A DNA stretch of 51,861 nucleotides from a virus (taxonomy: Duplodnaviria; Caudoviricetes): positions 1 to 51,861 of the IMG/VR virus record IMGVR_UViG_3300030329_004367. The stretch is one strand, 5' to 3'. Below the pieces are notes generated by a model. That model ran no database searches, was not told the origin of the DNA, and worked only from the letters and a program-made list of their open reading frames with translations. Shown here in pieces: positions 2,128-51,861 of this stretch. A program made the translations under genes and the position numbers. Position 1 is the first letter of the stretch. Each line of letters begins with the position of its first letter.

Positions 2128-3151
2128 TTAATAATCCCTTTAGGGTTTCTATGTCTGTATAATTTAAAGCTTCATCTATAGCTGTTTTTTGAAGCTTTGT
2201 TTCTCTTTCTATAGCTGTATCTAATGATTCTTTTAATTCATCATATTTAGTATCATAGCCTGCCCATTTATCTTTTAAATCCTCTTCATCTCTATAAACA
2301 GCTTTTAATTTTGACTGTTCCCTTCCTATCTCAGGCCCGGGGCCAAATCTTTTATTCTCTGTATCATAAGTTAACAATCTATTTTCAACTTTTTCTAATC
2401 CTTCATCTTGACCTATATCTGCCCAACCTCCCATTAATTGCATTATAGCTTTACTTGCCGTATTAAGTCCCGGAATTATCATAGGGAACCCTTTATTTTC
2501 AATTAAATTGCTAGGACTTAAAGCGCTTAAATGACCAACTCTATCATCAAATTCTTGTCGTAATGTTCTTATATTATCTGTATATGACTTCTTTTGGCTT
2601 TCAATAGGCTTAAATTCAGAATGCTTTAAATCCCCTAATGCTCTAAATGCAGCAGTTCCTTTTACTGTATAGCCTTCAGCTTTACGCCTGTACATATGCC
2701 TTTTACTAGGAGGTATATCTTCCATCCAAGCATTATTATCTTCCATAAAATCAGAATATTTATAAGTGACTGGATTATTTTTATCTGAAGAATCTATAAA
2801 TTCTAAGCCTTTAATTTGTTCTCCAAGCTCAGGAGATATTTGAAAAGAGAAGTTTTCAATATATTCCTTATTTGCATCTTGCAAAGTAATATTTCTTAAT
2901 ATTTCAGAATTAGACATATCTTTAGAAAAGTTAAATTGATTACTTAATGTGTCTCCATGTTCAGACATTATATTAGTAATCATAAAGGCATCTACCTTTG
3001 TTTTCAAATCAGGAGAAAGTTCAAATATCCTATCTTTATATGGATGAGCTTGAATGTAATCATGCTTATCTTCAAATGTTTCATATTGATTAAGTTCTGA
3101 AAAAAACTTCTCTTCTATTTTCTTTAACTTATCCGTCATCATCATCTCCAT
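2120..3151 (-). CDS. Putative internal virion (ejection/cargo) protein
   Basis: 343-aa charged, helical-looking ORF between the nozzle and the giant gene; assigned by position only. Confidence 0.45.
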   Translation of the reverse strand: MEMMMTDKLKKIEEKFFSELNQYETFEDKHDYIQAHPYKDRIFELSPDLKTKVDAFMITNIMSEHGDTLSNQFNFSKDMSNSEILRNITLQDANKEYIENFSFQISPELGEQIKGLEFIDSSDKNNPVTYKYSDFMEDNNAWMEDIPPSKRHMYRRKAEGYTVKGTAAFRALGDLKHSEFKPIESQKKSYTDNIRTLRQEFDDRVGHLSALSPSNLIENKGFPMIIPGLNTASKAIMQLMGGWADIGQDEGLEKVENRLLTYDTENKRFGPGPEIGREQSKLKAVYRDEEDLKDKWAGYDTKYDELKESLDTAIERETKLQKTAIDEALNYTDIETLKGLLNE

Positions 3152-4433
3152 CTAACAAGCTTTCCCAACTATTTGCATCAGTGAAAGTAGAGGATTGCTT
3201 TTGCTCTTCATTTTCATCGTTAATCAAGTTATGGCTAGAATCGTTCTTAGAATTAAATGCTCCCATGATTGTTTTAGAATAGTGATCATTCATATCTTTA
3301 GCAAAACTATTAAGCTGCACACCTTGAGGCATACCAAGGTATTTCATAGCAAGCTTATTTAACTCTCTTGCTTTATCATTATCGCCACTTGATATAGCTG
3401 CTTGATAGTTTTTAGCTGCCTCTTGAATATAATTATTATATAGACTAAATTCACCACTTAGAGTTTTTGTTCTTACTGCTGTTGTAGGAGCTCCTACATC
3501 ATGCATCTCCATATAAGCCATAGATAAGTCAAACACATTTGTATCATTAAGAGGTCTTCCTAAAAGCGTTGCAAATTCCGCACCTATTGTTGCTTTAATC
3601 TTATTTCTTTCTTGCTTATATTCAGCTATCTGCACTTCATTCTCTTCAATATTTTCTAAGTTAGATTGTAAAGCTCCGTAAGCTTTATAGACAGCATAAT
3701 CACTTTGCTTTTCAGCGGAGCTTAAAGCCATTCCAAATACCATATTTGCTTCTTCTCTTGCTTTTTGTGTTCTCCTCTCTTCATTTAAGCCTTTATGATA
3801 TTTAATTTTTTGCCCTGTACTTTCTAAAGCTTTTTCTGTTTTTTGCAAGTTCGCTAATTCTTTCACCATAACACCGGGATTATTTGCAAACATAGCTTCT
3901 ACAGTAGGACTAGCTGTTCCATACATAGCTTCATATGAAACAATCCCTAGATCTCCCAAATCCCAAGCTTCAGTATCTCCTCCACCTTTATGGCCGAATC
4001 CACCTGCCATGATATTTTTAGATCTTTTAATGTCTCCATAGACTAAATCTTCAAGCACGGATATTTTATTTTTTATAGCTTGTGTATTGTCAAGATACAT
4101 ATCCGCCCTAGCTTGATAATTAGTTGCATCTCCTTGATATATTTGTTGTGCAACCTCTAATCCACTTTTTTTATAGCTTTCATCTAAAAGGTCTAATGAC
4201 CCCACAGCTTCTTGATATTTAGTTTCTAATTTAGTTAAATCGGCTTGAGCCTGTTTATGAGCCATAACATTTTCATTATATAAAGATTTAGATGCCTCAA
4301 GTTCAATGCTTTTATTTTTCCAATCTTGTTGCATTTCAAGCTGCAATAATCTAAAAGCCATCTCTTCATCATATCTTCTTTTTGATTCTTTTTCCCGCCT
4401 ATTGCTTGCTAATATCTCTGTTAGTGTCGACAT
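3129..4433 (-). CDS. Putative internal virion (ejection/cargo) protein, coiled-coil rich
   Basis: 434 aa, Q/E/K/A-rich; lies in the ejection-protein block. Confidence 0.5.
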   Translation of the reverse strand: MSTLTEILASNRREKESKRRYDEEMAFRLLQLEMQQDWKNKSIELEASKSLYNENVMAHKQAQADLTKLETKYQEAVGSLDLLDESYKKSGLEVAQQIYQGDATNYQARADMYLDNTQAIKNKISVLEDLVYGDIKRSKNIMAGGFGHKGGGDTEAWDLGDLGIVSYEAMYGTASPTVEAMFANNPGVMVKELANLQKTEKALESTGQKIKYHKGLNEERRTQKAREEANMVFGMALSSAEKQSDYAVYKAYGALQSNLENIEENEVQIAEYKQERNKIKATIGAEFATLLGRPLNDTNVFDLSMAYMEMHDVGAPTTAVRTKTLSGEFSLYNNYIQEAAKNYQAAISSGDNDKARELNKLAMKYLGMPQGVQLNSFAKDMNDHYSKTIMGAFNSKNDSSHNLINDENEEQKQSSTFTDANSWESLLDGDDDDG

Positions 4434-31609: not shown

Positions 31610-31738
31610 ACCAGCCTCCACTTTTAGATAGAGCAAGCCCCTGAGCGCCAGAGGCACTTTTTTGGATCTTTAACTCAAAACTTCACTTAAGACCAGTTAT
31701 TTTCTCCCATATCCTAAGCTTATATTTAAGCAATTTTT

Positions 31739-31854
31739 ATCGACTATTGGGGACAAATCAGTCTACTATTTTGAAGACCTACAACCCAACTTCTGACCCA
31801 CCTAGCAGAACTTACTCAAGTGTACTATTTGGGTGATAGTTTTTAACTGTCGAT
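31739..31854 (-). ncRNA. Candidate structured leader RNA of the late operon
   Basis: Terminal ATCGAC/GTCGAT stem; inner ACTAT/ATAGT and TTCTG/CAGAA hairpins; begins just downstream of a promoter match. Confidence 0.45.
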
Positions 31855-31857
31855 ATG

Positions 31858-31889
31858 CAAATATACTATAATAATAAATTAACAACAAA
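31858..31889 (-). promoter_or_regulatory. Late-arm promoter for host RNA polymerase
   Basis: TTTG-N20-TATATTTG (Bacteroidota-type -33/-7 consensus), also readable as TTGTTG-N17-TATATT. Confidence 0.55.
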
Positions 31890-32072
31890 ACTATTTAGTT
31901 AAATTTGAGACATGGTAAGGAGGTTTTGAAAATTATAGCATTTTAGTGTGTGGTGTTTTATATAATGGGTACCCCTTAACAGGGGATTTTAGTTATCACT
32001 TTTACGTTATTTTTGATTTGATTTTTTTTGTTATTTTTAGAGTTAATTATTAATAATATAAGGAAACAAATT

Positions 32073-32426
32073 ATGTCAACAAGATTGAGCACTGGTAGAG
32101 AATGGAATAATCGTATCAAGGTAGATGGTGGTGAAGAAGCTCCAATGTTAGATCCTAAGCATCCAATACAGGCAGCTGTGATGGGTAGAGTAGTAAGGGA
32201 TATCAACAATGGTAACTTTGATAGCATTGGTAACTTGCAAGTAACAGCTAAAGCATTTAATGTTAAAGGCAATGAAAGCAAGGTAGTTATTGGAAGGGAG
32301 ACTGTAACCTTCATGCAAGATAATAATAAAACTATACATGAAGTTACAGATGCAGATCTAGTTAAAGTATATCTAGATAATGGAATGACGATAATCAAGA
32401 CAGAAACTAGAGATATTATGGGCTGA
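32073..32426 (+). CDS. First early-arm protein, hypothetical
   Basis: Start reassigned to ATG 32073 (AAGGA SD). Confidence 0.7.
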   Translation: MSTRLSTGREWNNRIKVDGGEEAPMLDPKHPIQAAVMGRVVRDINNGNFDSIGNLQVTAKAFNVKGNESKVVIGRETVTFMQDNNKTIHEVTDADLVKVYLDNGMTIIKTETRDIMG

Positions 32427-32436
32427 TAAGGCATAG

Positions 32437-32466
32437 TAAGGAGGGTAGTTTATTCTATCCTCCTTA
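32437..32466 (+). terminator. Hairpin after the first early gene
   Basis: TAAGGAGGGTAG / CTATCCTCCTTA 12-bp stem. Confidence 0.55.
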
Positions 32467-32818
32467 TGTAAATTAAATTAATATATTGATAGGTATTATA
32501 GGCTTACTTAAACCCTAATTATGCCTGACGTACACATAGTATCTTATACCAACTTATACCAAACAATACTTTAAGAAGGACGATGATCCTTCAACGTTTG
32601 TAGCTTGTACGTTATACAATCCTATATGCGAACTGCATAGAACAAGTTAGAAGAGACCTCTACCTGATGAATCCATGAGTACGAGGATATGTCTCTTTGA
32701 AATACTTGCAGTGGTCTATCTTGAATAGTTTGTAAAGAATAGAGACAACCTTCGGGGGAACTATACTTTATCACTGTAGGTATAAATAATTAATTCATAC
32801 TTAATATGGAGGTCAGCA

Positions 32819-33082
32819 ATGACTAAAGAAATAAAGATAATAACTATTAATAGTAAGATATCTGAGCTAGATGATGTTAAGACTGAAATACATAAATTTA
32901 AAGATAGTAAAGAGCATCCTTGGACTAAAGCAGGTAAGATGTCAATAGGTCAGTTTCTTAGACACGGATATAAAATAAGAGCTTTTGGTAGAGCTAAATA
33001 TCGAAGAGTTATTAGAGCTGCAGTATTTAGTGAATTTATTGATTATGATTCAAGAGAGCTAATACTAGATAAAGTATTATAA
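32819..33082 (+). CDS. Hypothetical protein
   Basis: 87 aa, GGAGG SD. Confidence 0.65.
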   Translation: MTKEIKIITINSKISELDDVKTEIHKFKDSKEHPWTKAGKMSIGQFLRHGYKIRAFGRAKYRRVIRAAVFSEFIDYDSRELILDKVL

Positions 33083-33183
33083 TTTTTTGAGAGGGTTAAT
33101 ACCCTACGACCTGATATGGTGGTCTATAGTGGAGTAATGAACCACGTTGTACTTAGTACTGGGCTACCTTATCAAATATACTG

Positions 33184-33261
33184 AGCGGGCGAGTGAAATG
33201 GCTTACACACTTGGCTCATAACCAAGAGATAGTAGGGTTCGACTCCCTATGCCCGCATCCA
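33184..33261 (+). tRNA. tRNA-Met(CAT), initiator-like, with encoded CCA
   Basis: GCGGGC/GCCCGC acceptor stem, CTTGG-CTCATAA-CCAAG anticodon arm, TTCGACT T-loop, 3' CCA, 1:72 mismatch. Confidence 0.88.
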
Positions 33262-33409
33262 ATTAAGATAGTCTTAGTATAGCTCTAATATGAGAATACT
33301 AGTTCGATAACAGGTTAGTAACAATAAGACAATCTCTAGAGGTCTGTGAAAACTGCGAGTTATCTATTAATTATATTAGATCATGTGCAAATCATGACGC
33401 TATCTTATT

Positions 33410-33917
33410 ATAGTTACATAGTTCCATTGTAGGTACGAAATCAAAGCAACAACTTTGTAAGAGGTAAAAATGTAAGGAGAGCAACCTAGTAGTCGGCAGG
33501 CAAATGGAAGTGAACCTTATATGATGCTTAACCTTCCTTCACCTCTACTATGTATAAAATTTCAGTGGGGCGAACCAGCATAGATACTGCAGTAATCTAT
33601 AGATGTTCGATAAAATAGCTAGAGTTAAACTATTCAATTGAAAGAGACAACTGGAATAATACAATATGCTGAACTCTGTTGTATTGTGAAGTATGTCTTG
33701 GCCAATCCTATAGGCTAAATAAAAATGCATACTCAATATGCTACCCCTTCAATTTATGATGTTATAGGCTAAAAATAGTCTGTAATAGCTTGTTGGAGAG
33801 AACCTCAGCTTATTAAATAGCTTGGAGGCGTCCTAGGAGCTGGAACATCGTGTAGAGACTTAGTGGTTGACCCAATGTCATCCCGACCACATAAGTCCTA
33901 GTTGTATGATCACTATT
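33410..33917 (+). ncRNA. Candidate large (about 500 nt) multi-stem ncRNA; ends approximate
   Basis: No credible ORF; at least eight nested stems, several with G-U pairs that work only on the plus strand. Confidence 0.55.
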
Positions 33918-33935
33918 AACATAAGGAGAATAGCA

Positions 33936-34055
33936 ATGACGACTGATATTAAAAGATGGGTAGTTTATGTAAATCTTGCATTACTATCAGCTGCAGCTTG
34001 GTATTGTATAGCTGAAGTGTTTTTATCATTTGTTTGGAAATCAATATGGCATTAA
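33936..34055 (+). CDS. Small single-TM protein (39 aa)
   Basis: TAAGGAG SD; MTTDIKRWVVYVNLALLSAAAWYCIAEVFLSFVWKSIWH. Confidence 0.65.
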   Translation: MTTDIKRWVVYVNLALLSAAAWYCIAEVFLSFVWKSIWH

Positions 34056-34073
34056 TAAAATAAGGAGACATTT

Positions 34074-34232
34074 ATGAACAGTTTGGACATATTACTATAT
34101 ACAATATTGGCAGCTGGTACATTATATGGATTCTGGATTATTTTACATATTGTATGGTTTGCAGTCATAGAGATCTATCATAAGATAGATGATGAAATCA
34201 GATATTATAAAGGACGCAGACGTATTAAATAA
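34074..34232 (+). CDS. Small TM protein (52 aa)
   Basis: TAAGGAG SD; MNSLDILLYTILAAGTLYGFWIILHIVWFAVIEIYHKIDDEIRYYKGRRRIK. Confidence 0.65.
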   Translation: MNSLDILLYTILAAGTLYGFWIILHIVWFAVIEIYHKIDDEIRYYKGRRRIK

Positions 34233-34349
34233 TAATTAAGAGAGTGGTTTGAATTGGGGTCTACCAGCTGACGTGCACTAAAACGCAAGGCGAAGCTATT
34301 AGTAGTCAACGGTGTTGAAGACTGCTCTCTTATCAGACGCAAGCTGTTT

Positions 34350-34730
34350 GGGGCCATAATATGATAGTTGATCACTATTATATTACCCTAATCTAGAAAC
34401 CTGTGAATAGGAGTGGATGAAGACCCTTACAGGTACAAAGATAGACATTGTAGTCGCAGTAGGCAGGGTTAAGAGCTCGCTTAACATTCAAATGAATGGC
34501 TGAAGTGTAATCGACATCAATGGTAGGATCCGATAAAATTAGACAGACTAGTCTTTTCCGATCGCTAAGTATACTCTAATCCATTTCTCATGGTAGTATA
34601 CACTCTCAATTGGCTATGATAGCCTTATACAATGTACTTATAAGTATTAGTATAGTATGACAATATAAAGAGAGGGCGTGATATTATAGAGACGGTACCC
34701 TTGGAGGTAATAGTTAAATCCTCCCTAGAC
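34350..34730 (+). ncRNA. Candidate structured ncRNA of about 380 nt directly upstream of the HNH gene; ends approximate
   Basis: Consecutive stems 34357-85, 34399-434, 34468-85, 34569-601 and 34703-24; no SD-led ORF. Confidence 0.5.
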
Positions 34731-34737
34731 ACACAAT

Positions 34738-34765
34738 ATTTCACCAACAATCATCAACATAAGGA
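34738..34765 (+). repeat. 28-nt direct repeat, copy 1 (copy 2 at 36146-36173)
   Basis: ATTTCACCAACAATCATCAACATAAGGA vs ATTTCACTAACAATCACTAACATAAGGA, 25/28 identical. Confidence 0.8.
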
Positions 34766-34775
34766 AAATAACAAA

Positions 34776-35411
34776 ATGACAATTCAAACATTAATAAATA
34801 AATCTATCTTAAAACCAGATCCTGTTAGAGATAATATGGATGGTACTTATAGTATTAAAATAAAAGCTAATAAAAAGAATGCAGTAAGATCTACTCAATG
34901 GAATAAATATGCCATATCACATTGTGATGTCTGTGGAAATACTTGCCCTAAAAGACTTGACTCTAAGCCATCAAGAACATATTGTACTTTAATATGTCAT
35001 AGTAAAATGCAACGTGAAATGAATAGACGTTCAAAATACCAAGATAATGATGGTTGGAGGACTAAAGACTCATATCATGGATATATGGTAAAAAGAATAT
35101 GGGATAATCCTTTTTTTACACAAGGTGAATGGGCAACTCAACATAGATATAATATGGCAATGCTTTTAGGAAGAAAGTTATTAAAAAGTGAAGTAGTACA
35201 TCATATTGACATGAATAAAAGAAATAATAATATTAATAATTTGTGGTTATGTAATTCTAGTCAACATCAAATAGCCCATATGTCATTTAATATGTTATGT
35301 GCTGAAGCTATGAGCAGGCCAGTTCAATTTAAATTTAATATAGAAACAGGTAAATATTATCTAATCAACAAGGAGAAAAACAATGACAGCAACAAAAAAG
35401 AGACTAGGTAG
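34776..35411 (+). CDS. HNH endonuclease with an N-terminal zinc finger
   Basis: CDVCG...YCTLIC; QHRYNM...EVVHHIDMNKRNNNINNL...H; start reassigned to ATG 34776. Confidence 0.88.
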   Translation: MTIQTLINKSILKPDPVRDNMDGTYSIKIKANKKNAVRSTQWNKYAISHCDVCGNTCPKRLDSKPSRTYCTLICHSKMQREMNRRSKYQDNDGWRTKDSYHGYMVKRIWDNPFFTQGEWATQHRYNMAMLLGRKLLKSEVVHHIDMNKRNNNINNLWLCNSSQHQIAHMSFNMLCAEAMSRPVQFKFNIETGKYYLINKEKNNDSNKKETR

Positions 35412-35676
35412 GCCTCGTAAAACAACTACTACTAAAGTTACTAAACGTGTAACTAAAACAGGAACATATAACAATATGCATGAAATAGCTTCAGATGTAA
35501 ATGTCGTAATAAAATCTTTAATCACACAAGATGGAAGATTTACACCACAAGAAGCTTCTGCTATTAGTAAATTATATGGAAATCAATTATCATTAGCAAA
35601 GCTTGAATTAGATCATGCTAGAATAAGTACCGCTAAAACAACAACTACTAAAGATATATTGTCTTTAGGAAATTAA
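35383..35676 (+). CDS. Basic protein with an AT-hook-like GRPRK motif
   Basis: KKRLGRPRK; AAGGAG SD. Confidence 0.55.
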   Translation: MTATKKRLGRPRKTTTTKVTKRVTKTGTYNNMHEIASDVNVVIKSLITQDGRFTPQEASAISKLYGNQLSLAKLELDHARISTAKTTTTKDILSLGN

Positions 35677-36472: not shown

Positions 36473-36603
36473 CCTATGAGTTATGCTACTCTAAAAAGCA
36501 GACAAGATCCTACAAGGTTAGGACGATCAGGAAGGGGAAGGTTGGAACACTGGATACCGAGAAACGAAGTGTCTTCCCCTTTTAAATTTTAATAGGAGGT
36601 TAT

Positions 36604-36976: not shown

Positions 36977-37361
36977 GTATACAAAATATCAACAAGGAGA
37001 TGTTGTTATGTATAGATTAGAAGATTCTAATCAATTTGAAAAATATAAATCATATTCAAATTATGCTAAGTATATTGGAAAGACCAATGAAAATGCTATA
37101 CTTGCATTTGGAGAAGTAACTGGACATACTCATAGAGTTGAAATGTCTAAAATGTTAGAAAATGCAGGTATTAAACTACATATGGAAAATGGTAGACATG
37201 CAGGAAAAGATGTTCCTAGAGCATTTGAAGTTACAGGGTCAGAAGTTGAATTAGAGCATGAAGAACATGATACTGTTACATTACCTCCGGGTAAATATGT
37301 AGTAAAGATTGTACGTGAATTTAACCATATAACAAGGAGAGCACAATATGTCGCAGATTAA
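36936..37361 (+). CDS. Conserved His-rich 'QGDV' protein, partner of the DUF6745-like protein
   Basis: YQQGDV...LAFGEVTGHTH...HEEHDTVTLPPGKY...RE. Confidence 0.7.
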   Translation: MSKESQKEQKPVVKYTKYQQGDVVMYRLEDSNQFEKYKSYSNYAKYIGKTNENAILAFGEVTGHTHRVEMSKMLENAGIKLHMENGRHAGKDVPRAFEVTGSEVELEHEEHDTVTLPPGKYVVKIVREFNHITRRAQYVAD

Positions 37362-38454
37362 TTTTGATAATTTTTCAAATGATACAATAGATAATAGCCG
37401 TGTTGAATATCTTATAAAACATGGAAAGCCTAAAGATATTGTATTCTTTAAAGGCGAAACAGGTGATAGATATACTATATATTTATTCATCAAAAAGACC
37501 ATAAAACAAACTGATATATATACTGTTTGGAACACATACGCTCATAGTACTGATAAAGGTAATTATGTAGGTAGTATTACATCAGACTTTATTTTACATG
37601 CTACTGGTGAAAAAACTTGGTCTAGTTGGAAAGGAGCTGCTGGAGAACTTGTAAAGCAATTAATGAGACAAGGACTATGTCCTATAAAAGATGATAAAAA
37701 ATTTACAATAAAATTCTGTAGATCATCATATTTTATAAAAACTCATGATAAAAATGAATGTACTCCTTGGCTTGGAATGAAAATAGATCTTAAATCTGGA
37801 TTGTTAGTAAATAAGCCTACTAAAGAAGCTAAACAGATATATAATACAGCTAAAGAACAAGATAAAGCTCAACGTAAACGTAATTATATAGCAAATAAAG
37901 AAAATAAAGCTGCACTTAGAAGGTATAATTTAGCTGGCGGTGATACTCAATTCCAAACTAGAGAATGGATAGATGGAAAAATGGTAGACAAAATAGATCC
38001 TACTATAGAAACAATGGATTGGTCTAAAGTTCCCATAGATGATGTATTCAGACATCGTAATGCTACATTAAGAAGTAATATAATAGAGCATTATGGAATG
38101 AATGCTATACTTGAAACATTAGAGCATGAAGTAATAGATGAAGATACTATTGATGGACGTAAATATAAACTACTTAATGTTACCATTCCTGATTTCTCTA
38201 ATAATTCTCCTGATTCAGATTCATATAAAGGTTTGTATTTAGAAATGATTAATCCTTCTACAGGAGAAAGTCATTTTGAAGGTGTACCTAATGTGCAAAC
38301 TGATGGTGGATGGGGGAATGGCTTTATAACAGAACCTACTGTAAAATGTGCTTTAACTTGGAGAGATAATGATATTTCTGTACAAGTAGAAGGATGGGAT
38401 AGTGCAAAGTTACATAATAGTTCTACTTATGTCAAACCTATAGTTCTTAAATAA
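37348..38454 (+). CDS. DUF6745-like domain protein
   Basis: C-terminal NATLRSNIIEHYG...YLEMINPSTGESHFEGVP...TVKCALTW. Confidence 0.65.
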   Translation: MSQINFDNFSNDTIDNSRVEYLIKHGKPKDIVFFKGETGDRYTIYLFIKKTIKQTDIYTVWNTYAHSTDKGNYVGSITSDFILHATGEKTWSSWKGAAGELVKQLMRQGLCPIKDDKKFTIKFCRSSYFIKTHDKNECTPWLGMKIDLKSGLLVNKPTKEAKQIYNTAKEQDKAQRKRNYIANKENKAALRRYNLAGGDTQFQTREWIDGKMVDKIDPTIETMDWSKVPIDDVFRHRNATLRSNIIEHYGMNAILETLEHEVIDEDTIDGRKYKLLNVTIPDFSNNSPDSDSYKGLYLEMINPSTGESHFEGVPNVQTDGGWGNGFITEPTVKCALTWRDNDISVQVEGWDSAKLHNSSTYVKPIVLK

Positions 38455-43967: not shown

Positions 43968-43972
43968 TGAAA

Positions 43973-44130
43973 TTGACTATACAGAGGGAGCATCGTTAAG
44001 ATGGCTTGTGGAGATAACCCCTGATGACTGTAGTACTACAGTGTACTGGTGAAAGATGAGGATGGGATCATCATATCATAGGTTTGTGGTGGACTGGGTT
44101 GAAATGCACCAGTCATGTACGTATAGTCAA
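43973..44130 (+). ncRNA. Candidate 158-nt multibranch ncRNA
   Basis: Perfect terminal stem TTGACTATAC/GTATAGTCAA enclosing four or more hairpins. Confidence 0.5.
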
Positions 44131-46189: not shown

Positions 46190-49100
46190 CTATCCAAGCC
46201 TATCTAAAGCTTTCATTATAGCTCTAGCATCTGATGGAGATGTAGATTGCTTAATGTTTTTCTTTCTACCACGTTTAGGTTCTGAAAGGCCAAGCTTATT
46301 ATCAGCCCATTTACGCCATTCTTTTTGTTCTTGACTAGCAAACAATCCAAGCTCTAACCATACAGCGTCTTTTAACCCAGCTTTATTCCATACTGGCAAT
46401 GTATAAGCTGTAAATCTTGCTAATTGAGAATTAAACATTGATAGTGTTTTGTAAAGATCTTGTTGTTCATCTTTTTTATAAGCCTTTTTTAAAGATGCTT
46501 CATGAGCAAACTGCACCTCTTCATCTTGTAAAGCGCCCATATTAGTATGTGTCATCCATTCATAAAGACTTAACACAATGCCAACATTTGGACCTAAAAA
46601 ATACGTTCCACCTTGTCCATATGTAGCTTGATCTAATTCTGCAAGTTGCTCTGGATCATTTCTATCTGTTGTAAGCCATTTATATGCAATATCTGCTGTA
46701 TCTAAAACATCATTAGGTGCAAGTTTAGTAAAATTAGTTCTAGCTGCAAGTGTACCTGCAAACATCATGGCTTGCACAAAGGCAAATCTTAAAGGCCTCA
46801 TAAATTCTTCACTTCTAAGATCTCCAGCTTTAAGAGAAATACCAGCTTCTTTCGCCCATTTATACATTAAATTAACCATATTAAACCGATAATGTGCAAA
46901 TTGACCAAGTCCCATTTTTGCTAGACCTAAAGCTTTACTATCTTCACTAGTTGCTTTTATAGCCTTAGCTTTATTCCATTTTGCATACTCAAAATGCAAA
47001 TCTAATGCAGAATTATAAGCCATTTGACCAGCTTGATTTTCTACCCAATTATCTATAACTTTTTGAGTTTCTGAGCCATATTTTGCTTGTAAATCATCAT
47101 AGGTTATTTGATAGTTTTTACCTTTTTTTTCTTTAATCTTATTTATATCTTTTTTTAATATCTCTTGTGCCTTAAAGGTATTAGAAGTTGCCATTAAATT
47201 TTGATGTGCTAAAGAAAATCCAATTCTGAATGTTTTAGATCTATTCCAGTCTTCCACTATTTTATGAAGCTTGCCACCTAAAGCTGCAGCTTTTCCAGTT
47301 ATTCTTGCCACTCTTTCAGCAGGTTTTTCTCCTCCCATTATAGCTAACTCTCCATTAGAATCTACATATAAAGTTTTATTTTTCATATGTGCTTCCTCTA
47401 ATGCACCTCTACTAGCTTGACTTATATTTTCATCTTTACCGGTAAGAGCTTCCCAAGCATTTGACCTTCTTGTTGTTCCATCATACCATTGCAAACCAAA
47501 TCTTTTTAACTGCCTATCTAACTTGGTTCGATTATTTTCTGCACCACCTGCCTGTTTATACCATCTTTGAGCCTGTCCTACAAAAGGAGCAGAAGCTCTC
47601 AATCCAAATTCCACCCATTCATATAATCTTTGTGTTGCATTTCTAGCTGCTGACCTTACATTCCCTCCCATTAATCTAAAATAAGTAAGAGAAGTCATAG
47701 CCCTCATCCACTCAGATACATTTTTATCTGCATTAGGATCTACATGCTGTATTTCGCTATAAACATCAAATAGTAATTGTTTCATATCTTCAGCTGTTTC
47801 TGCTAAATCATCTCTACCTTTCTCTTTAGCAGGCTTTAAATGTTCATTAGTAATAGCGTCAATAGCTTTCTTAAAAGTTCCTTTAACATGAGCTTTATAA
47901 TTAAATACACCTACATCATTTGTATATTTCTTTAAAAAGAAATATGGGTCATTATCATAAATAGGATTTATAATTGGAGATCTATTTTTTGCTACATTAA
48001 TAATTGATTCCCAGCTATCTAATTCTGTTTGTATTTTTTTATCTAATGATAGCTTATTGTCATGAATAGAGTTTTCTAATTTTTTAATAGTATCTAGCAA
48101 TCCAAGGCTATATTGAGACATATAATGTTTTGAAAATTTAACATTTCCTTTATTTGAATATCTATCTCCAGACTTAAAGCCTAATTGTATAAAATCTGAT
48201 TCTGATTGGAGATTTTTATAATCTGTTACTACACCATTCTCGTCTATAGTATGCTGAAATTCCATTGCCTTAATCAATCCATTAATACGTTCAACAGTCC
48301 CATCTACATATTGCAATCTCTTACCTTTGGCTAATTTTTTTATTTGCTGTAATCCTCTAATCATGCTAGTTACACCAGCTTTACGTATAAGATTATAATT
48401 TTGCAACATAGAATTAACTCTAGCCTTTTGAGCGTTATCTAAAAGATTACCATTTAAATCACGTAAAGTATCTATGTCTGCTCCTTGTAGAACAGTATTA
48501 ATTAGCTCAAAAGCTTTCCCTGAGCCTGTATTATAAAATTTAATAAGCTCGCCTCTATTAGCACGTAACTTTAGACTTATCGCATCAATTTTCTTTTTAT
48601 CTGTAGAGGATAACCATAGCTTCCTTAATTGTGTATATTCATCTTGAAGCTTTTTAAGACGCCTTTGTCCACCACTGCTTATACCTCTAATATCTGTATA
48701 TTTGGAGCCCATAGCTAATGTGAAAGCTTGAAACTCTTTTAAAAAGTCATTTGTCTGCCTACTAGTTTCGTTAGTATAATCCCTATAGAATGACGTCTCA
48801 TTTACTAATTCTTTTTCAAATCTCATTAATTCAGGGACATTCTGCATTGCAGCTCTAGGCAAATGCCATTTAGATGCAAAATAACCACGTGGATTAGCTA
48901 TCTGCTGATTATAATAATGCAATCCAGCTTCAAATTTTCTTACATCTTTAAAGTTAACAGGAAATTCTGTTGGATTTAATTTCTTTTTTGTATACTTCTC
49001 CCATAACCATTCAAAAGTTTCAAAATTATTCCATTTAGCATCTTTTACATTATTAAACATATTATTATTCAAGCTAGTCCAATTATCAGCTAAAACTTGC

Positions 49101-49192
49101 ATTCTTTTTTGAACTTCTTTTTTATCTTTAGACGACATCTCTTGTTCACGTTTACGCCTAAATGCATGTAATGCACATGTCCAAATACTCAT
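46190..49192 (-). CDS. Large internal virion (ejection) protein
   Basis: 1000 aa, helical, AGGAG SD, hydrophobic segment FAFVQAMMFAGTLAA; last gene of the late arm. Confidence 0.6.
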   Translation of the reverse strand: MSIWTCALHAFRRKREQEMSSKDKKEVQKRMQVLADNWTSLNNNMFNNVKDAKWNNFETFEWLWEKYTKKKLNPTEFPVNFKDVRKFEAGLHYYNQQIANPRGYFASKWHLPRAAMQNVPELMRFEKELVNETSFYRDYTNETSRQTNDFLKEFQAFTLAMGSKYTDIRGISSGGQRRLKKLQDEYTQLRKLWLSSTDKKKIDAISLKLRANRGELIKFYNTGSGKAFELINTVLQGADIDTLRDLNGNLLDNAQKARVNSMLQNYNLIRKAGVTSMIRGLQQIKKLAKGKRLQYVDGTVERINGLIKAMEFQHTIDENGVVTDYKNLQSESDFIQLGFKSGDRYSNKGNVKFSKHYMSQYSLGLLDTIKKLENSIHDNKLSLDKKIQTELDSWESIINVAKNRSPIINPIYDNDPYFFLKKYTNDVGVFNYKAHVKGTFKKAIDAITNEHLKPAKEKGRDDLAETAEDMKQLLFDVYSEIQHVDPNADKNVSEWMRAMTSLTYFRLMGGNVRSAARNATQRLYEWVEFGLRASAPFVGQAQRWYKQAGGAENNRTKLDRQLKRFGLQWYDGTTRRSNAWEALTGKDENISQASRGALEEAHMKNKTLYVDSNGELAIMGGEKPAERVARITGKAAALGGKLHKIVEDWNRSKTFRIGFSLAHQNLMATSNTFKAQEILKKDINKIKEKKGKNYQITYDDLQAKYGSETQKVIDNWVENQAGQMAYNSALDLHFEYAKWNKAKAIKATSEDSKALGLAKMGLGQFAHYRFNMVNLMYKWAKEAGISLKAGDLRSEEFMRPLRFAFVQAMMFAGTLAARTNFTKLAPNDVLDTADIAYKWLTTDRNDPEQLAELDQATYGQGGTYFLGPNVGIVLSLYEWMTHTNMGALQDEEVQFAHEASLKKAYKKDEQQDLYKTLSMFNSQLARFTAYTLPVWNKAGLKDAVWLELGLFASQEQKEWRKWADNKLGLSEPKRGRKKNIKQSTSPSDARAIMKALDRLG

Positions 49193-49195
49193 TTA

Positions 49196-51861
49196 TTAAT
49201 CTCCTAATCCATAACAATCAAAAATATCTCTAACTCTAGCGCTAGCAGTCTCTCCTTGCCCACCACGTTCACCTAAATCTTTTCTAGAAATAGAATCTGC
49301 TTCATTAATTAACCGCTCTTTAACTCCAAAATCTCTAACTACTCCATCATCATCAGCTATCATTCTTCTATTAGCCCATTGTTCATGATAAGGAATATTC
49401 TTTTTAGCCATTTCTTGAGAAGCCTTATATAGTAATACAGGATCCACAATTCCATCGCCTTGAGCATATTTTACCATTACTTCAGCAGCTGTTCTTGTAA
49501 TTTCATCTCCTGAGTTGACCTTATCATAAATATCTTGATTTAAATATTTATCTTTAGTCATATATCCATCTATACTAGCAGGCTCTGTATGCATTCTAGC
49601 TTTAACTAAATTAAAGTCAATATTAGGATTCTCTGTTTGTATTAAAGCTACAGTTTTTAATTGATTGATATCATCTAACATTTCTTTTGCAAATACAGGA
49701 TCGCCTTTATGTTCTCCAGATTGAATCTTTGCTAATAAAGATAAAACATCCTTACTTAATGCATTTTCACTATACATATAATCATAGACTACATTTTTAC
49801 TAGAATGAGTATTTAATGCACGGACAGATACAACTTTATCTGAAACATAAGGAGTTAACATTTGTAAGATTAAAGCTTTTCTATATGAAACATCTTCCGC
49901 AGTTTTTGGATTATTAAATAAAGCATCATATAAAACTCTTTCTTTTTCTAAAACAAAATCAACTATTCCTTCACGTTGTACACCAACTTTTTGAAGCCTC
50001 ATTACTTCACTTACAATAGCATTATAATCTCTAGTAATGTATTCAAATTCTGATTTTTTAATTCTTCTTACATTGCCATCAGCCTCGATAATACTAGGCA
50101 TACCAGAAAAAGCTTGAAATAAAACTCTTAATCCTTTTTGAACTTCACCATCCCCTATCTCAAACCTTCTTCCATTTTCAATAATTTTATCTGATAAGTT
50201 TATAAATCTATCATTCCTACTACCTACACTTATAACTTCTTTTATATTACCACCTTTATCAACAATGACAACAGGTTTAGTTTGATTATTTACATATCGA
50301 GACGGCTTATGCCCTCTATGTGGAATAGTTCTAGGCTGCTCTATAAAATTATCTTTAAACATATATGAAAGAGATTCTTCCATATCTGATCTAAGCCTTG
50401 AAACTCTTTCTAATCTTTGAGTTAAATTAGTTAATTCTTGACTATCATCTACATCTTTAACAAAGGCTTTTTTTCTTTCTATTTCTAATTTTAAATGGTT
50501 TTCTTGTCTTGCTAAATCATTTAATCGTATAATACCACCTTCATCTTTAACATAATGTTTTAATGCTGTGTTAAGTAATTGATTTCGCTTTTCTTGCAAT
50601 GTTTTACCTACTATTTCATCACCATAGCCATCAGAAATATATTTCATTATCACTTTAGCTTCTGTGCTTTCACCACTCATCATTCCAGCTTGTTTTGTAT
50701 GAGTACTTTTTTCATAAATTTCATGTAATCCTTTCATAGCTATATCAAAAGGATTTCTTGAACTAGTAAAATAATCAGCCATAGCTGTCAAGCCTGTAGA
50801 AATATCAACAGTAGGTTTAATACCAAAATTATCAAATTTATTCATAGCTTGGTGTAGCTCTACATATGCATCATGATAGTTACGTATAGTGGCTTTATTT
50901 TCTATTCCAGAACCGGGATCTTCATATATTCCTTTATTATATCTAAGATATCTATTAATAGGATTAATTAGTCTACGATTGATAGTTTCAACAATATCTC
51001 TATACTTAGGGGCAGTTAAATCTACATCCAACACCTTATTGTCACCCTTCGCTGTACCTTCAGTCCAAATTTCAAATATACCATCTTTCCCAAATAATAC
51101 TTCTGTCTTTCTTAACTGAAGCTCATCTGCGTCTAACTTAGATGGTAATTTTTTATAAACATCAATAAATTTTGTAGCTAATCTAGTAATATTATCTACT
51201 GTATTAGCATATTGACTTGAATCTTTAAGCTTTACTGTTAAAGATTTATCCCTTCCTGTCACGTCTGCCATAGCGAATTTTAAAACTTCAGGATGATCTC
51301 TGAATATATTAGATAAATAAGTAACAGTTTGATGCATTTTAACAAATTGACCTCTAGCTTTATTTACTTCATGCAGTAATTGATCATTAGTAATGTCTGC
51401 ACTTAATAGATCGGGAATGGATCTGGCAAAGCCTTCAACCTGCCTATCTGGAGAAAATAACTCATTAAGTTTACCTTCAACGCTTTCAGGAGTAATCTCT
51501 CCAGCTACCCTAGAAGCTTCTTTCCAAAACAAAGCTGGAGCTGCAACATAGTTAAATGATTTATCCATATCAAAATCAGCATCTTGAGGCTTAATAGCAT
51601 CCATATGATTCATTCTACTAACATTACCAGCTGCCTCATCAACATGTGCTTGACCATCGACTATAGCCATTTTACTAATAACTATATCTCCTATCATATT
51701 TCTAGGTTGCCTGCTATTTAGCATTCCAATACTTAAACCTTCTTGCTGTAATACTAAAGCTGCATCTGCTAAGGTAGTATTTGCAGGAATTAAGCCCATT
51801 CCTTTATTGTGTAATTCTTCAGCTTTTTCAAATGCAACCTTATTAACACTATTCTTCTTAC
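49196..51861 (-). CDS. C-terminal part of a giant two-barrel (beta'-like) RNA polymerase, probably virion-packaged; 5' end lies outside the window
   Basis: Frame is open from 51799 to the right edge; MLNSRQP...QDADFDMDK parallels RpoC LLNRAP...NADFDGD. Confidence 0.8.
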   Translation of the reverse strand, partial: KKNSVNKVAFEKAEELHNKGMGLIPANTTLADAALVLQQEGLSIGMLNSRQPRNMIGDIVISKMAIVDGQAHVDEAAGNVSRMNHMDAIKPQDADFDMDKSFNYVAAPALFWKEASRVAGEITPESVEGKLNELFSPDRQVEGFARSIPDLLSADITNDQLLHEVNKARGQFVKMHQTVTYLSNIFRDHPEVLKFAMADVTGRDKSLTVKLKDSSQYANTVDNITRLATKFIDVYKKLPSKLDADELQLRKTEVLFGKDGIFEIWTEGTAKGDNKVLDVDLTAPKYRDIVETINRRLINPINRYLRYNKGIYEDPGSGIENKATIRNYHDAYVELHQAMNKFDNFGIKPTVDISTGLTAMADYFTSSRNPFDIAMKGLHEIYEKSTHTKQAGMMSGESTEAKVIMKYISDGYGDEIVGKTLQEKRNQLLNTALKHYVKDEGGIIRLNDLARQENHLKLEIERKKAFVKDVDDSQELTNLTQRLERVSRLRSDMEESLSYMFKDNFIEQPRTIPHRGHKPSRYVNNQTKPVVIVDKGGNIKEVISVGSRNDRFINLSDKIIENGRRFEIGDGEVQKGLRVLFQAFSGMPSIIEADGNVRRIKKSEFEYITRDYNAIVSEVMRLQKVGVQREGIVDFVLEKERVLYDALFNNPKTAEDVSYRKALILQMLTPYVSDKVVSVRALNTHSSKNVVYDYMYSENALSKDVLSLLAKIQSGEHKGDPVFAKEMLDDINQLKTVALIQTENPNIDFNLVKARMHTEPASIDGYMTKDKYLNQDIYDKVNSGDEITRTAAEVMVKYAQGDGIVDPVLLYKASQEMAKKNIPYHEQWANRRMIADDDGVVRDFGVKERLINEADSISRKDLGERGGQGETASARVRDIFDCYGLGD

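Follow-up and report, generated by a model that had tools for sequence, protein, structure and literature searches.

Here we analyse a viral contig of 51,861 bp (Duplodnaviria; Caudoviricetes; IMG/VR record IMGVR_UViG_3300030329_004367, positions 1 to 51,861), hereafter called the window, which is complete or nearly so (98% according to CheckV), and within it a 2.3-kb island at positions 32430-34735 that carries a transfer RNA gene (tRNA, anticodon CAU) together with a series of folded non-coding RNA modules, which we designate B, C, D1, E and F. Up to ~31400, the minus strand of the window is occupied by structural genes, including those for a P22-type portal and for a tail fibre that carries an endosialidase-chaperone domain, and from 32073 onwards the plus strand carries replication-type genes (ERF, primase-helicase and small endonucleases), with the GC skew switching at ~31750. 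The island lies at the head of this rightward arm, which we infer from its gene content to be 'early'.

Counting each open reading frame (ORF) of at least 38 amino acids (aa) on the dominant strand as coding, 94% of the genome is coding, and seven ORF-free gaps of at least 100 nucleotides (nt) are left. The three largest all fall in the island (32427-32818, 392 nt; 33083-33866, 784 nt; 34233-34700, 468 nt), followed in rank by the divergent region at 31658-32027 (370 nt). This agrees with a first-pass annotation of the same DNA, which had described only three short ORFs and one tRNA in this part of an otherwise coding genome. Around 1.6 kb of the island has no open frame under any stop-codon reading. 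Outside its ORFs and tRNA, i.e. in the three gaps, TAA, TAG and TGA each occur in all six frames, which excludes an alternative genetic code or hidden ORFs; judged by these stops in every frame, modules B, C, D1, E and F are not translated. The guanine-plus-cytosine (GC) content is 0.34-0.39 in the island gaps as compared to 0.26-0.32 in the adjoining early genes. The sole other ORF-free gap with raised GC (0.42), at 43968-44083, contains several predicted hairpins and has no convincing relative among the loci compared.

Conserved modules and their base-pairing

Relatives of the window were collected using as anchor a conserved 368-aa protein, encoded at 37348-38454 and thus 2.6 kb downstream of the island, which gave 12 IMG/VR loci and 80 metagenome loci, many from ocean surveys. 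A few further loci came from pattern scans, and homologues of the modules were identified by nhmmer with the window's modules (individual loci are referred to as L006, L013 and so on). Five of the eight stem-closed modules drawn in the first-pass annotation have plus-strand homologues in related marine phage contigs, namely B, C, D1, E and F. Four of the eight (33112-33174, 33264-33407, 34237-34332 and 34350-34730) reappear as units B, C, E and F near the borders originally given, whereas 33410-33917 proved to be a composite in which D1 forms a unit of its own. B and F of the window are 90.5% and 80.3% identical to their counterparts in L013, and D1 is 92.7% identical to that of L006, with coding stretches at 68-78%; that is, the modules are at least as similar to their relatives as the neighbouring coding DNA.

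Pairing within the module alignments was compared to slid controls, in which the partners were shifted by 1-3 columns, and to 500 column shuffles. For F, 13 distinct sequences (61-99% identical) gave a consensus structure (RNAalifold) of 104 pairs in 19 helices, with 95.5% of cells paired (34-49% in slid controls) and 40 of the 104 pairs showing compensatory changes (7-12 in slid controls). The 14 sequences of B had 96.4% of cells paired versus 30-46% with slid partners, and compensatory pairs at 7 of 18 versus 0-3. Five sequences of C (97.6% versus 30-46% paired; compensatory pairs 10/42 versus 0-1) and seven of D1 (94.7% versus 23-57%; 9/30 versus 3-5) behaved alike, so that covariation, which the first-pass annotation had named as a check, exceeded the slid controls in B, C, D1 and F. 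This excess of compensatory pairs is a sturdier figure than the share of paired cells. Judging from the alignments, the B, C, D1, E and F RNAs are conserved, with their helices held by compensatory changes, and we are highly confident that they represent genuine structured RNA genes.

The pairing is also strand-specific. G-U pairs make up 159 of 1347 cells in F, 48 of 252 in B, 22 of 210 in C and 14 of 208 in D1. Read from the minus strand, each of these would turn into an A-C mismatch, and pairing would fall to 77-88%. In addition, every module match in loci with the 368-aa gene (113 of 113, duplicate contigs counted) shares the orientation of that gene. Because of the G-U pairs and this shared orientation, we read the modules on the plus strand, as had been proposed earlier from the G-U pairs. 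The proposal of a battery of separate stem-closed structured RNAs beside a tRNA, heading the rightward arm, likewise gained support from the homologues and their compensatory changes. Peripheral hairpins of variable length occur in B, E and F.

Across relatives, F measures ~390-430 nt, with insertions that vary the length of its peripheral hairpins and long unpaired stretches that are invariant. Its 3'-terminal hairpin loop can pair upstream, and the change of this pairing from ACUA/UAGU to AGUA/UACU in four sequences suggests a pseudoknot. In the window's F, the 5' strand of the outermost helix is lost and replaced by a 16-nt piece of another module, X. The same 16 nt begin a 70-100-nt module X in L010, L016, L011, L013 and L006 (e.g., L010 1383-1450 and L016 6410-6511), and L014 matches the 3' part of module X only. 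Module X resembles an acceptor stem joined to a T-arm, with the stem UAUGG/CCAUA and the 7-nt loop UGCAAAU, and in relatives it is called by neither ARAGORN nor the Rfam tRNA model. The X piece fused to the window's F points to recombination inside modules as well.

The 19 distinct instances of E share an invariant 5' core, UUUGAAUUGG, and an invariant 3' core, ACGGUGUUGAAG, which flank a hairpin of 21-85 nt; the closing duplex comprises at least 8 bp in 18 of them. By what we take to be the kink-turn consensus, the core can be written as a kink-turn, which is a motif and not a family. Read in this way, the core would comprise a 4-bp canonical stem (A-U, U.G, U.G, G-C, kept in 19/19; three instances have U-A in place of both U.G pairs), a GUU bulge of 3 nt, tandem G.A and A.G pairs (17/19 and 19/19, respectively) and a non-canonical stem continuous with the closing helix, in which U-A, U.G and C-G alternate. 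No L7Ae-type protein was found among the window proteins scanned with Pfam and PHROG.

Module B is tied to the tRNA. Among 16 non-redundant contigs with B, tRNA(CAU) follows B directly in 14 and after one intervening module in two; L044 alone has the tRNA without B. All 14 B sequences carry an invariant AUGA in the 9-nt loop, complementary to U33-C34-A35-U36 of the CAU anticodon loop, an arrangement which we take to resemble the complementarity between a specifier and an anticodon. A T-box leader was nevertheless rejected for B, as Rfam gave no T-box match at E up to 10 and only the loop AUGA resembles a specifier. With G1 paired to C72 and an anticodon stem that lacks GGG/CCC, the tRNA is of the elongator type. 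Isoleucine is most often encoded by ATA (367 of 716 Ile codons; 3.12% of the 11,754 codons in 26 ORFs), so the tRNA may be a lysidine-requiring Ile2 tRNA that decodes AUA, rather than Met; either identity, Met or Ile2, may apply. A cloverleaf was called in the island only at this tRNA, the other modules remaining uncalled by ARAGORN and by the Rfam tRNA model at E up to 10.

Beyond these units, the upstream modules at 32527-32781 have a sole relative, L010, which is 98.9% identical there, and the two D2 pieces have one relative each (L062 and L009), with hairpins that survive two-sided changes. Both D2 and the upstream modules probably belong to the array as well. The C/A-rich motif within the upstream part could be a protein-binding or promoter element. 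Outside the island, module G is present in at least 10 loci; in 10 aligned sequences its stem GGGGAAG/CUUCCCC changes to GGGGAGAU/AUCUCCCC around the nearly invariant loop GGAUACCGAGAAACG, and a 38-aa ORF called at this position is probably spurious. L010 has, at 2946-3418, a 470-nt ORF-free, GC-richer stretch of its own where the window has F and an HNH gene. Only the last 90 nt of it, of module G type, match the window, indicating that further RNA classes exist in the clade beyond those of the window. The features are listed in the table.

Table. Features of the island and its surroundings (window coordinates)
Feature	Position	Strand	Remarks
First early ORF	32073-32426	+	Just 5' of the conserved hairpin 32437-32466
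Conserved hairpin	32437-32466	+	Aligned with L062 and L011; stem held via two-sided changes; three sequences only
Upstream modules as first drawn	32527-32612, 32650-32698, 32704-32781	+	Folding z-scores -0.85, -2.06, -1.63
Unpaired C/A-rich motif ATACCAACTTATACCAAAC	32546-32564	+	Nearly invariant in the window, L062 and L011, which are otherwise diverged
Basic 87-aa ORF	32819-33082	+	Inside the island
Small conserved hairpin	33089-33107	+	Directly 5' of B; changed yet pairing stems in most alignment rows
Module B	33108-33177	+	Three-way junction RNA; 9-nt loop with invariant U.AUGA; tRNA-linked
tRNA, anticodon CAU	33185-33257	+	ARAGORN; Rfam 44.1 bits
Module C	33264-33407	+	~144-nt multi-branch RNA; 9-bp closing stem
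Module D1	33414-33556	+	~143-nt RNA; invariant 8-bp closing stem
D2 non-coding stretch	33561-33937	+	At least two conserved pieces, ~33561-33616 and ~33755-33853
Small membrane-type ORF	33938-34055	+	39 aa from an ATG behind a Shine-Dalgarno site
Small membrane-type ORF	34074-34232	+	52 aa; protein-level conservation in relatives, e.g. L061
Module E	34237-34332	+	Closing stem, kink-turn-like core, variable hairpin; one copy in the window
Module X remnant	34341-34358	+	16 nt fused to the 5' end of F
Module F	34344-34736	+	~390-nt ornate RNA, 19 helices, likely pseudoknot
HNH endonuclease ORF	34776-35411	+	Pfam HNH_3 and PHROG HNH; 211 aa; just 3' of F
Module G	36473-36603	+	Conserved RNA hairpin, flanked by two small conserved genes; outside the island

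Module order, neighbouring genes and spread

Module order was compared among non-redundant loci. The window reads B-tRNA-C-D1-E-F-G, and L006 reads B-tRNA-D1-E-C-E-G, with module X between D1 and E. Other orders are B-C-tRNA-E-F (L009), B-E-tRNA-D1-G-F (L013), F-tRNA-E (L044), E-B-tRNA (L115), B-tRNA-F (L008), B-tRNA-E-G (L010) and B-tRNA-C-E (L014). Five inversions in relative order are evident from this comparison (C/tRNA, E/tRNA, F/tRNA, C/E and G/F). Given these varied orders and combinations, the modules behave as RNA gene cassettes in their own right rather than as leaders attached to fixed genes, and so does the tRNA, which is one cassette among others.

The RNA modules adjoin one another without an ORF between them; each is closed by its own terminal helix, and A/T-rich linkers of a few bases lie between neighbours. 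In most cases, what adjoins B, C, D1 or E is another RNA module or the tRNA. The gene 3' of F varies over 10 loci, being the HNH gene here, an 81-aa protein in L034 and a 61-aa, 76-aa, 107-aa or 224-aa protein elsewhere (the last read as ParB-like); in L044, the tRNA lies directly 3' of F. The 81-aa protein that directly follows F in L034 is a homologue of the window gene at 35383-35676. The HNH ORF extends 29 nt into the start of this window gene and looks like a free-standing insertion. HEARO, or omega RNA of IscB, was considered and rejected: no Rfam match was obtained, and the adjoining protein is 211 aa long, has HNH_3 as its only Pfam match and is absent beside F elsewhere. The IscB architecture combines RuvC and HNH domains.

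When 24 different proteins of the window were scanned with Pfam and PHROG, the domains recognised were ERF, primase-helicase, HNH, endonuclease VII-like, DUF932, DUF1599, P22-type portal and tail-fibre domains, with no RNA-binding, RNA-processing or polymerase family among them. The 87-aa ORF of the island has no Pfam or PHROG family. ESM Atlas look-ups for this protein and a 117-aa early protein gave no usable lead, with models at a predicted local distance difference test (pLDDT) score of ~0.4.

To delimit the spread of the modules, we searched several collections. Neither blastn of the island nor tblastn of the 368-aa protein matched any of 50,697 GenBank phage records, in which the portal protein found one match of 26% identity. 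A pattern for F, scanned in IMG/VR only, hit 18 loci, 10 of which are true F by nhmmer profile and 8 of which look like chance. The B pattern hit 11 IMG/VR loci, all in the clade, and none of 185,579 prokaryote species genomes (one genome each). The E pattern hit 14 IMG/VR loci, six of which we read as true, and gave 102 matches in the species genomes versus ~34 expected by our own arithmetic; among the first 80 of the 102, which were inspected, none had the module's flanking stems, and they appear to be chance or coding-like. Taken together, no true copy of B or E lies outside the phage clade among the matches inspected, and the true IMG/VR matches of F, B and E are all within it.

In cmscan searches against Rfam 15, the proposed check for known families, the tRNA was the only hit in the whole window at gathering thresholds, and the modules have no curated family. 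Relaxing the cut-off to E up to 1 (32300-34900) or up to 10 (32400-34800), and adding L061 and L010, returned noise only (e.g., manA at 13.5 bits versus a threshold of 55.2). Specifically, GOLLD, ROOL, introns, small ribozymes, T-box, HEARO, transfer-messenger RNA, RNase P and 6S were not found at E up to 10 in the window or the two relatives.

Transcription, proposed working and alternatives

Consensus scans for transcription signals were at chance level, with 33 promoter-like sites versus 30.1 expected and 4 terminator-like sites versus 2.0, and no plus-strand terminator-like site fell inside 32430-34735. Only two marine metatranscriptome runs, both from one study, contain parts of the stretch, as short Logan contigs. 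One RNA-library contig covers 33205-33359, from the tRNA interior into C, with one difference, and two match F without differences (34453-34608 and 34466-34689); two further contigs carry a relative's F and a relative's E with L010-type flanks. No RNA-library contig falls on the ORFs of 32000-35500, and such contigs can neither rank nor exclude expression. The modules are present in RNA libraries, and the contigs say no more than this.

The idea that a virion polymerase transcribes the island found no footing. Neither a DNA nor an RNA polymerase was recognised in any part of the genome, and the minus-strand region at 46190-51799, which encodes two very large proteins (1000 and 867 aa), gave no Pfam match for either; the 1000-aa protein is also without a PHROG or Protein Data Bank (PDB) sequence match.

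We read the island as an array of independent RNA genes, consisting of tRNA(CAU) and at least five plus-strand folded non-coding RNAs that would be early, trans-acting and excised, and we hold this reading, taken as a whole, to be probable. The RNAs, the tRNA and the small ORFs would be co-transcribed from promoters upstream of 32073, in the first transcript after infection. Host enzymes of tRNA and RNA processing would then release the RNAs, with RNase P acting at the tRNA and RNase E-type cuts made in the A/U-rich linkers, and the closing helices, like a tRNA acceptor stem, would shield the RNA ends and so yield stable trans-acting species. Such excision from a common precursor fits the lack of an internal terminator and of enriched promoters, the linkers of a few bases and the contig bridging the tRNA and C; we judge the chances for and against it to be evenly balanced. 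Once released, the RNAs might serve as decoys or scaffolds during takeover by binding to proteins of host or phage, or to tRNA. The kink-turn-like core of E and, for B, the tie to the tRNA and the complementarity of AUGA to the anticodon would fit such roles, which we put forward tentatively and regard as rather unlikely. The anti-defence and translation-modulating roles suggested in the first-pass annotation are guesses too.

Several points weigh against the reading as an RNA gene array. Single-sequence folding of the eight modules as first drawn against dinucleotide shuffles, another of the proposed checks, favoured the plus over the minus strand in six of eight cases, but the plus-strand z-scores are modest (-0.85 to -2.36), which makes the finding weak on the folding test alone, and the borders used for folding were picked to close stems. 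Over B, C, D1 and F, 94.7-97.6% of cells are paired as compared to 23-57% with slid partners, a difference inflated by the use of structures predicted from the very alignments in which pairs were counted. The sequences are kin, so the shuffle control is not a probability and its counts (0 of 500 shuffles reaching the observed values for F, 2 of 500 matching the pair count of D1) overstate the case; for C and D1, the sets comprise just five and seven sequences. Neither the complementarity of the B loop to the anticodon, where both anticodon and AUGA never vary, nor the kink-turn reading of E, made by general consensus rules, comes with covariation. The window's F, having lost the 5' strand of its outer helix, may be an impaired copy. 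The Logan contigs are blind to RNA ends, strand and abundance, RNA libraries can hold DNA, and both runs belong to one study. Finally, we infer the processing and guess at the binding of modules that are known here from sequence, and no cultured relative that would point to a host was found in the GenBank phage records.

Some of the same evidence could be read differently. The linkers of a few bases, the ~850 nt without an ORF from B to D2, the five modules and tRNA in a row in L006 and the one RNA-library contig that spans the tRNA and C would also suit a single giant composite RNA, in which the modules are domains, the tRNA sits in a linker and the whole transcript works, possibly as a multimer; in the portion of the source available, GOLLD is described with a conserved 3' part, a variable 5' part and sometimes tRNAs in the linker (bioRxiv 10.1101/2024.12.08.627333). 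However, order and content differ, with inverted orders among close relatives, which is hard to square with one folded unit. Each module, moreover, has a closing helix of its own, small ORFs bearing a ribosome-binding site (RBS) interrupt the array, and GOLLD and ROOL gave no match at E up to 10; we consider a composite RNA improbable. We give similarly little credence to the modules being cis elements of the early messenger RNA, such as operators, riboswitch-like sensors, stabilisers or processing signals, even though F ends 25-45 nt before an RBS and start codon in 9 of 10 loci (in the tenth, L044, the tRNA takes this place), D2 reaches the ORF at 33938, the third upstream module ends 37 nt before the ORF at 32819 and G keeps a fixed place between two conserved small genes. 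The gene 3' of F differs in most lineages, the same module occurs at varied positions, and B, C, D1 and E usually have an RNA module or tRNA, and not an ORF, as their neighbour. A riboswitch or cis-regulatory leader was rejected as a class for these reasons.

The size of F, its invariant unpaired stretches and its probable pseudoknot are typical of catalytic RNAs, and a homing-type HNH gene adjoins it in the window; the modules, F above all, might in this light be ribozymes, or self-splicing or self-cleaving remnants, that cut the early transcript. Against this, the Rfam searches at E up to 10 contained no group I or group II intron and no small self-cleaving ribozyme (hammerhead, twister, pistol, hatchet or hepatitis delta virus-like), and neither a split reading frame around any module nor flanking exon frames were seen, on which grounds both classes were rejected. 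None of the other loci examined has the HNH gene next to F. The 5' end of F pairs with its 3' end, whereas in group I and group II introns the two ends, to our knowledge, do not pair with each other. We therefore regard a ribozyme as very unlikely. Mobile DNA resembling miniature inverted-repeat transposable elements (MITEs) with terminal inverted repeats, or recombination debris, in either case without RNA function, would account for the inverted repeat at the start and end of every module, the shuffled positions and the recombination scar in the window's F. Yet compensatory changes maintain helices in the interior as well, far from the termini, the G-U pairs work on one strand only, and all 113 matches have one orientation, whereas transposing elements insert both ways. 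The pattern scans for B, E and F also gave no true copy outside the clade among the matches inspected (for F, in IMG/VR only). The orientation and the confinement to the clade led us to reject membership in a MITE-like class, and we deem this explanation the remotest of those weighed here.

Going beyond an array of independent RNA genes, one may imagine the island as an RNA-only toolkit of exchangeable cassettes for the first minutes of infection, with distinct jobs in tRNA use and translation: B as an anticodon partner, E as a kink-turn decoy or adaptor and F as an ornate particle or catalyst. We think this unlikely and offer it as speculation. If true, B would be a minimal analogue of a T-box specifier, in trans or in cis, that shields or times the CAU tRNA; E, as a kink-turn decoy or adaptor, would engage a host RNA-binding protein; F would act as a higher-order particle or catalyst and make up a third class beside GOLLD and ROOL; and the shuffling of cassettes would parallel, at the level of RNA, the counter-defence islands that phages encode as proteins. 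By analogy, and as a guess, the early place, accessory-like distribution and fast reshuffling would resemble counter-defence gene sets. The shuffling itself suggests that phages exchange RNA genes as they do anti-defence protein genes, and the cassettes constitute natural presence/absence variants across ~15 related genomes.

Comparison with known phage RNAs

Structured phage RNAs of unknown function beside tRNA genes are a known kind. In bacteria and phages, it is rare to find structured RNAs of unknown function that are large or numerous, and such RNAs have repeatedly been a source of new biochemistry. Here, one 2.3-kb stretch holds at least five covariation-supported RNA classes outside Rfam 15, among them a 390-nt RNA with a likely pseudoknot, a family with a kink-turn-like core, known from 19 varied instances, and a small RNA genetically linked to a tRNA. 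As far as the literature found goes, an array of at least five such shuffled classes has not been described. Modules may, however, be included among the candidates of Fremin, Bhatt and Kyrpides (2023), who, according to the portion of the article available, reported 8,495 unnamed candidate structured RNAs from DNA viruses in IMG/VR, including tRNA-like ones (PMC10690425). Source (IMG/VR) and kind of evidence (covariation) are the same as here; the main text, so far as available, contains no array of this sort, and some of B to G may be among its candidates.

GOLLD and ROOL are phage and prophage RNAs that often lie near tRNA islands and form RNA-only cages, and one marine GOLLD sits downstream of a Met-tRNA, with tRNAs able to occupy the linker, as stated in the available portion of the source (bioRxiv 10.1101/2024.12.08.627333). 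Like GOLLD as described there, the modules are phage-borne, elaborately structured and close to a tRNA, here flanking tRNA(CAU) on both sides in a phage of marine origin. In contrast to GOLLD, which exceeds 800 nt, the largest unit here is F with ~390-430 nt, the cassettes are separable and variable in order, and the Rfam GOLLD model gave no match at E up to 10 in the window, L061 or L010. F shares with ROOL, as far as that source describes it, that it is a large ornate RNA of phages or prophages near tRNA islands with no known protein partner; it differs in lacking a Rfam match (E up to 10) and in a size and helix plan that were derived independently, and homology is not detectable.

The closest model for the working of the island may be, by analogy, the RNAC and RNAD of phage T4, which are likewise small RNAs from a phage tRNA region. 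Both are reportedly matured together with the tRNAs by host enzymes. In the part of the source available, the T4 tRNA region is described as giving two small RNAs of unknown role (PMC3014915). The two systems are likened by description and not by sequence, and they differ in that T4 has two RNAs among eight tRNAs and the window one tRNA among at least five larger RNAs. For the old question of the stable RNAs that phages such as T4 keep beside their tRNA genes, the island thus represents a richer system, with targets that can be synthesised.

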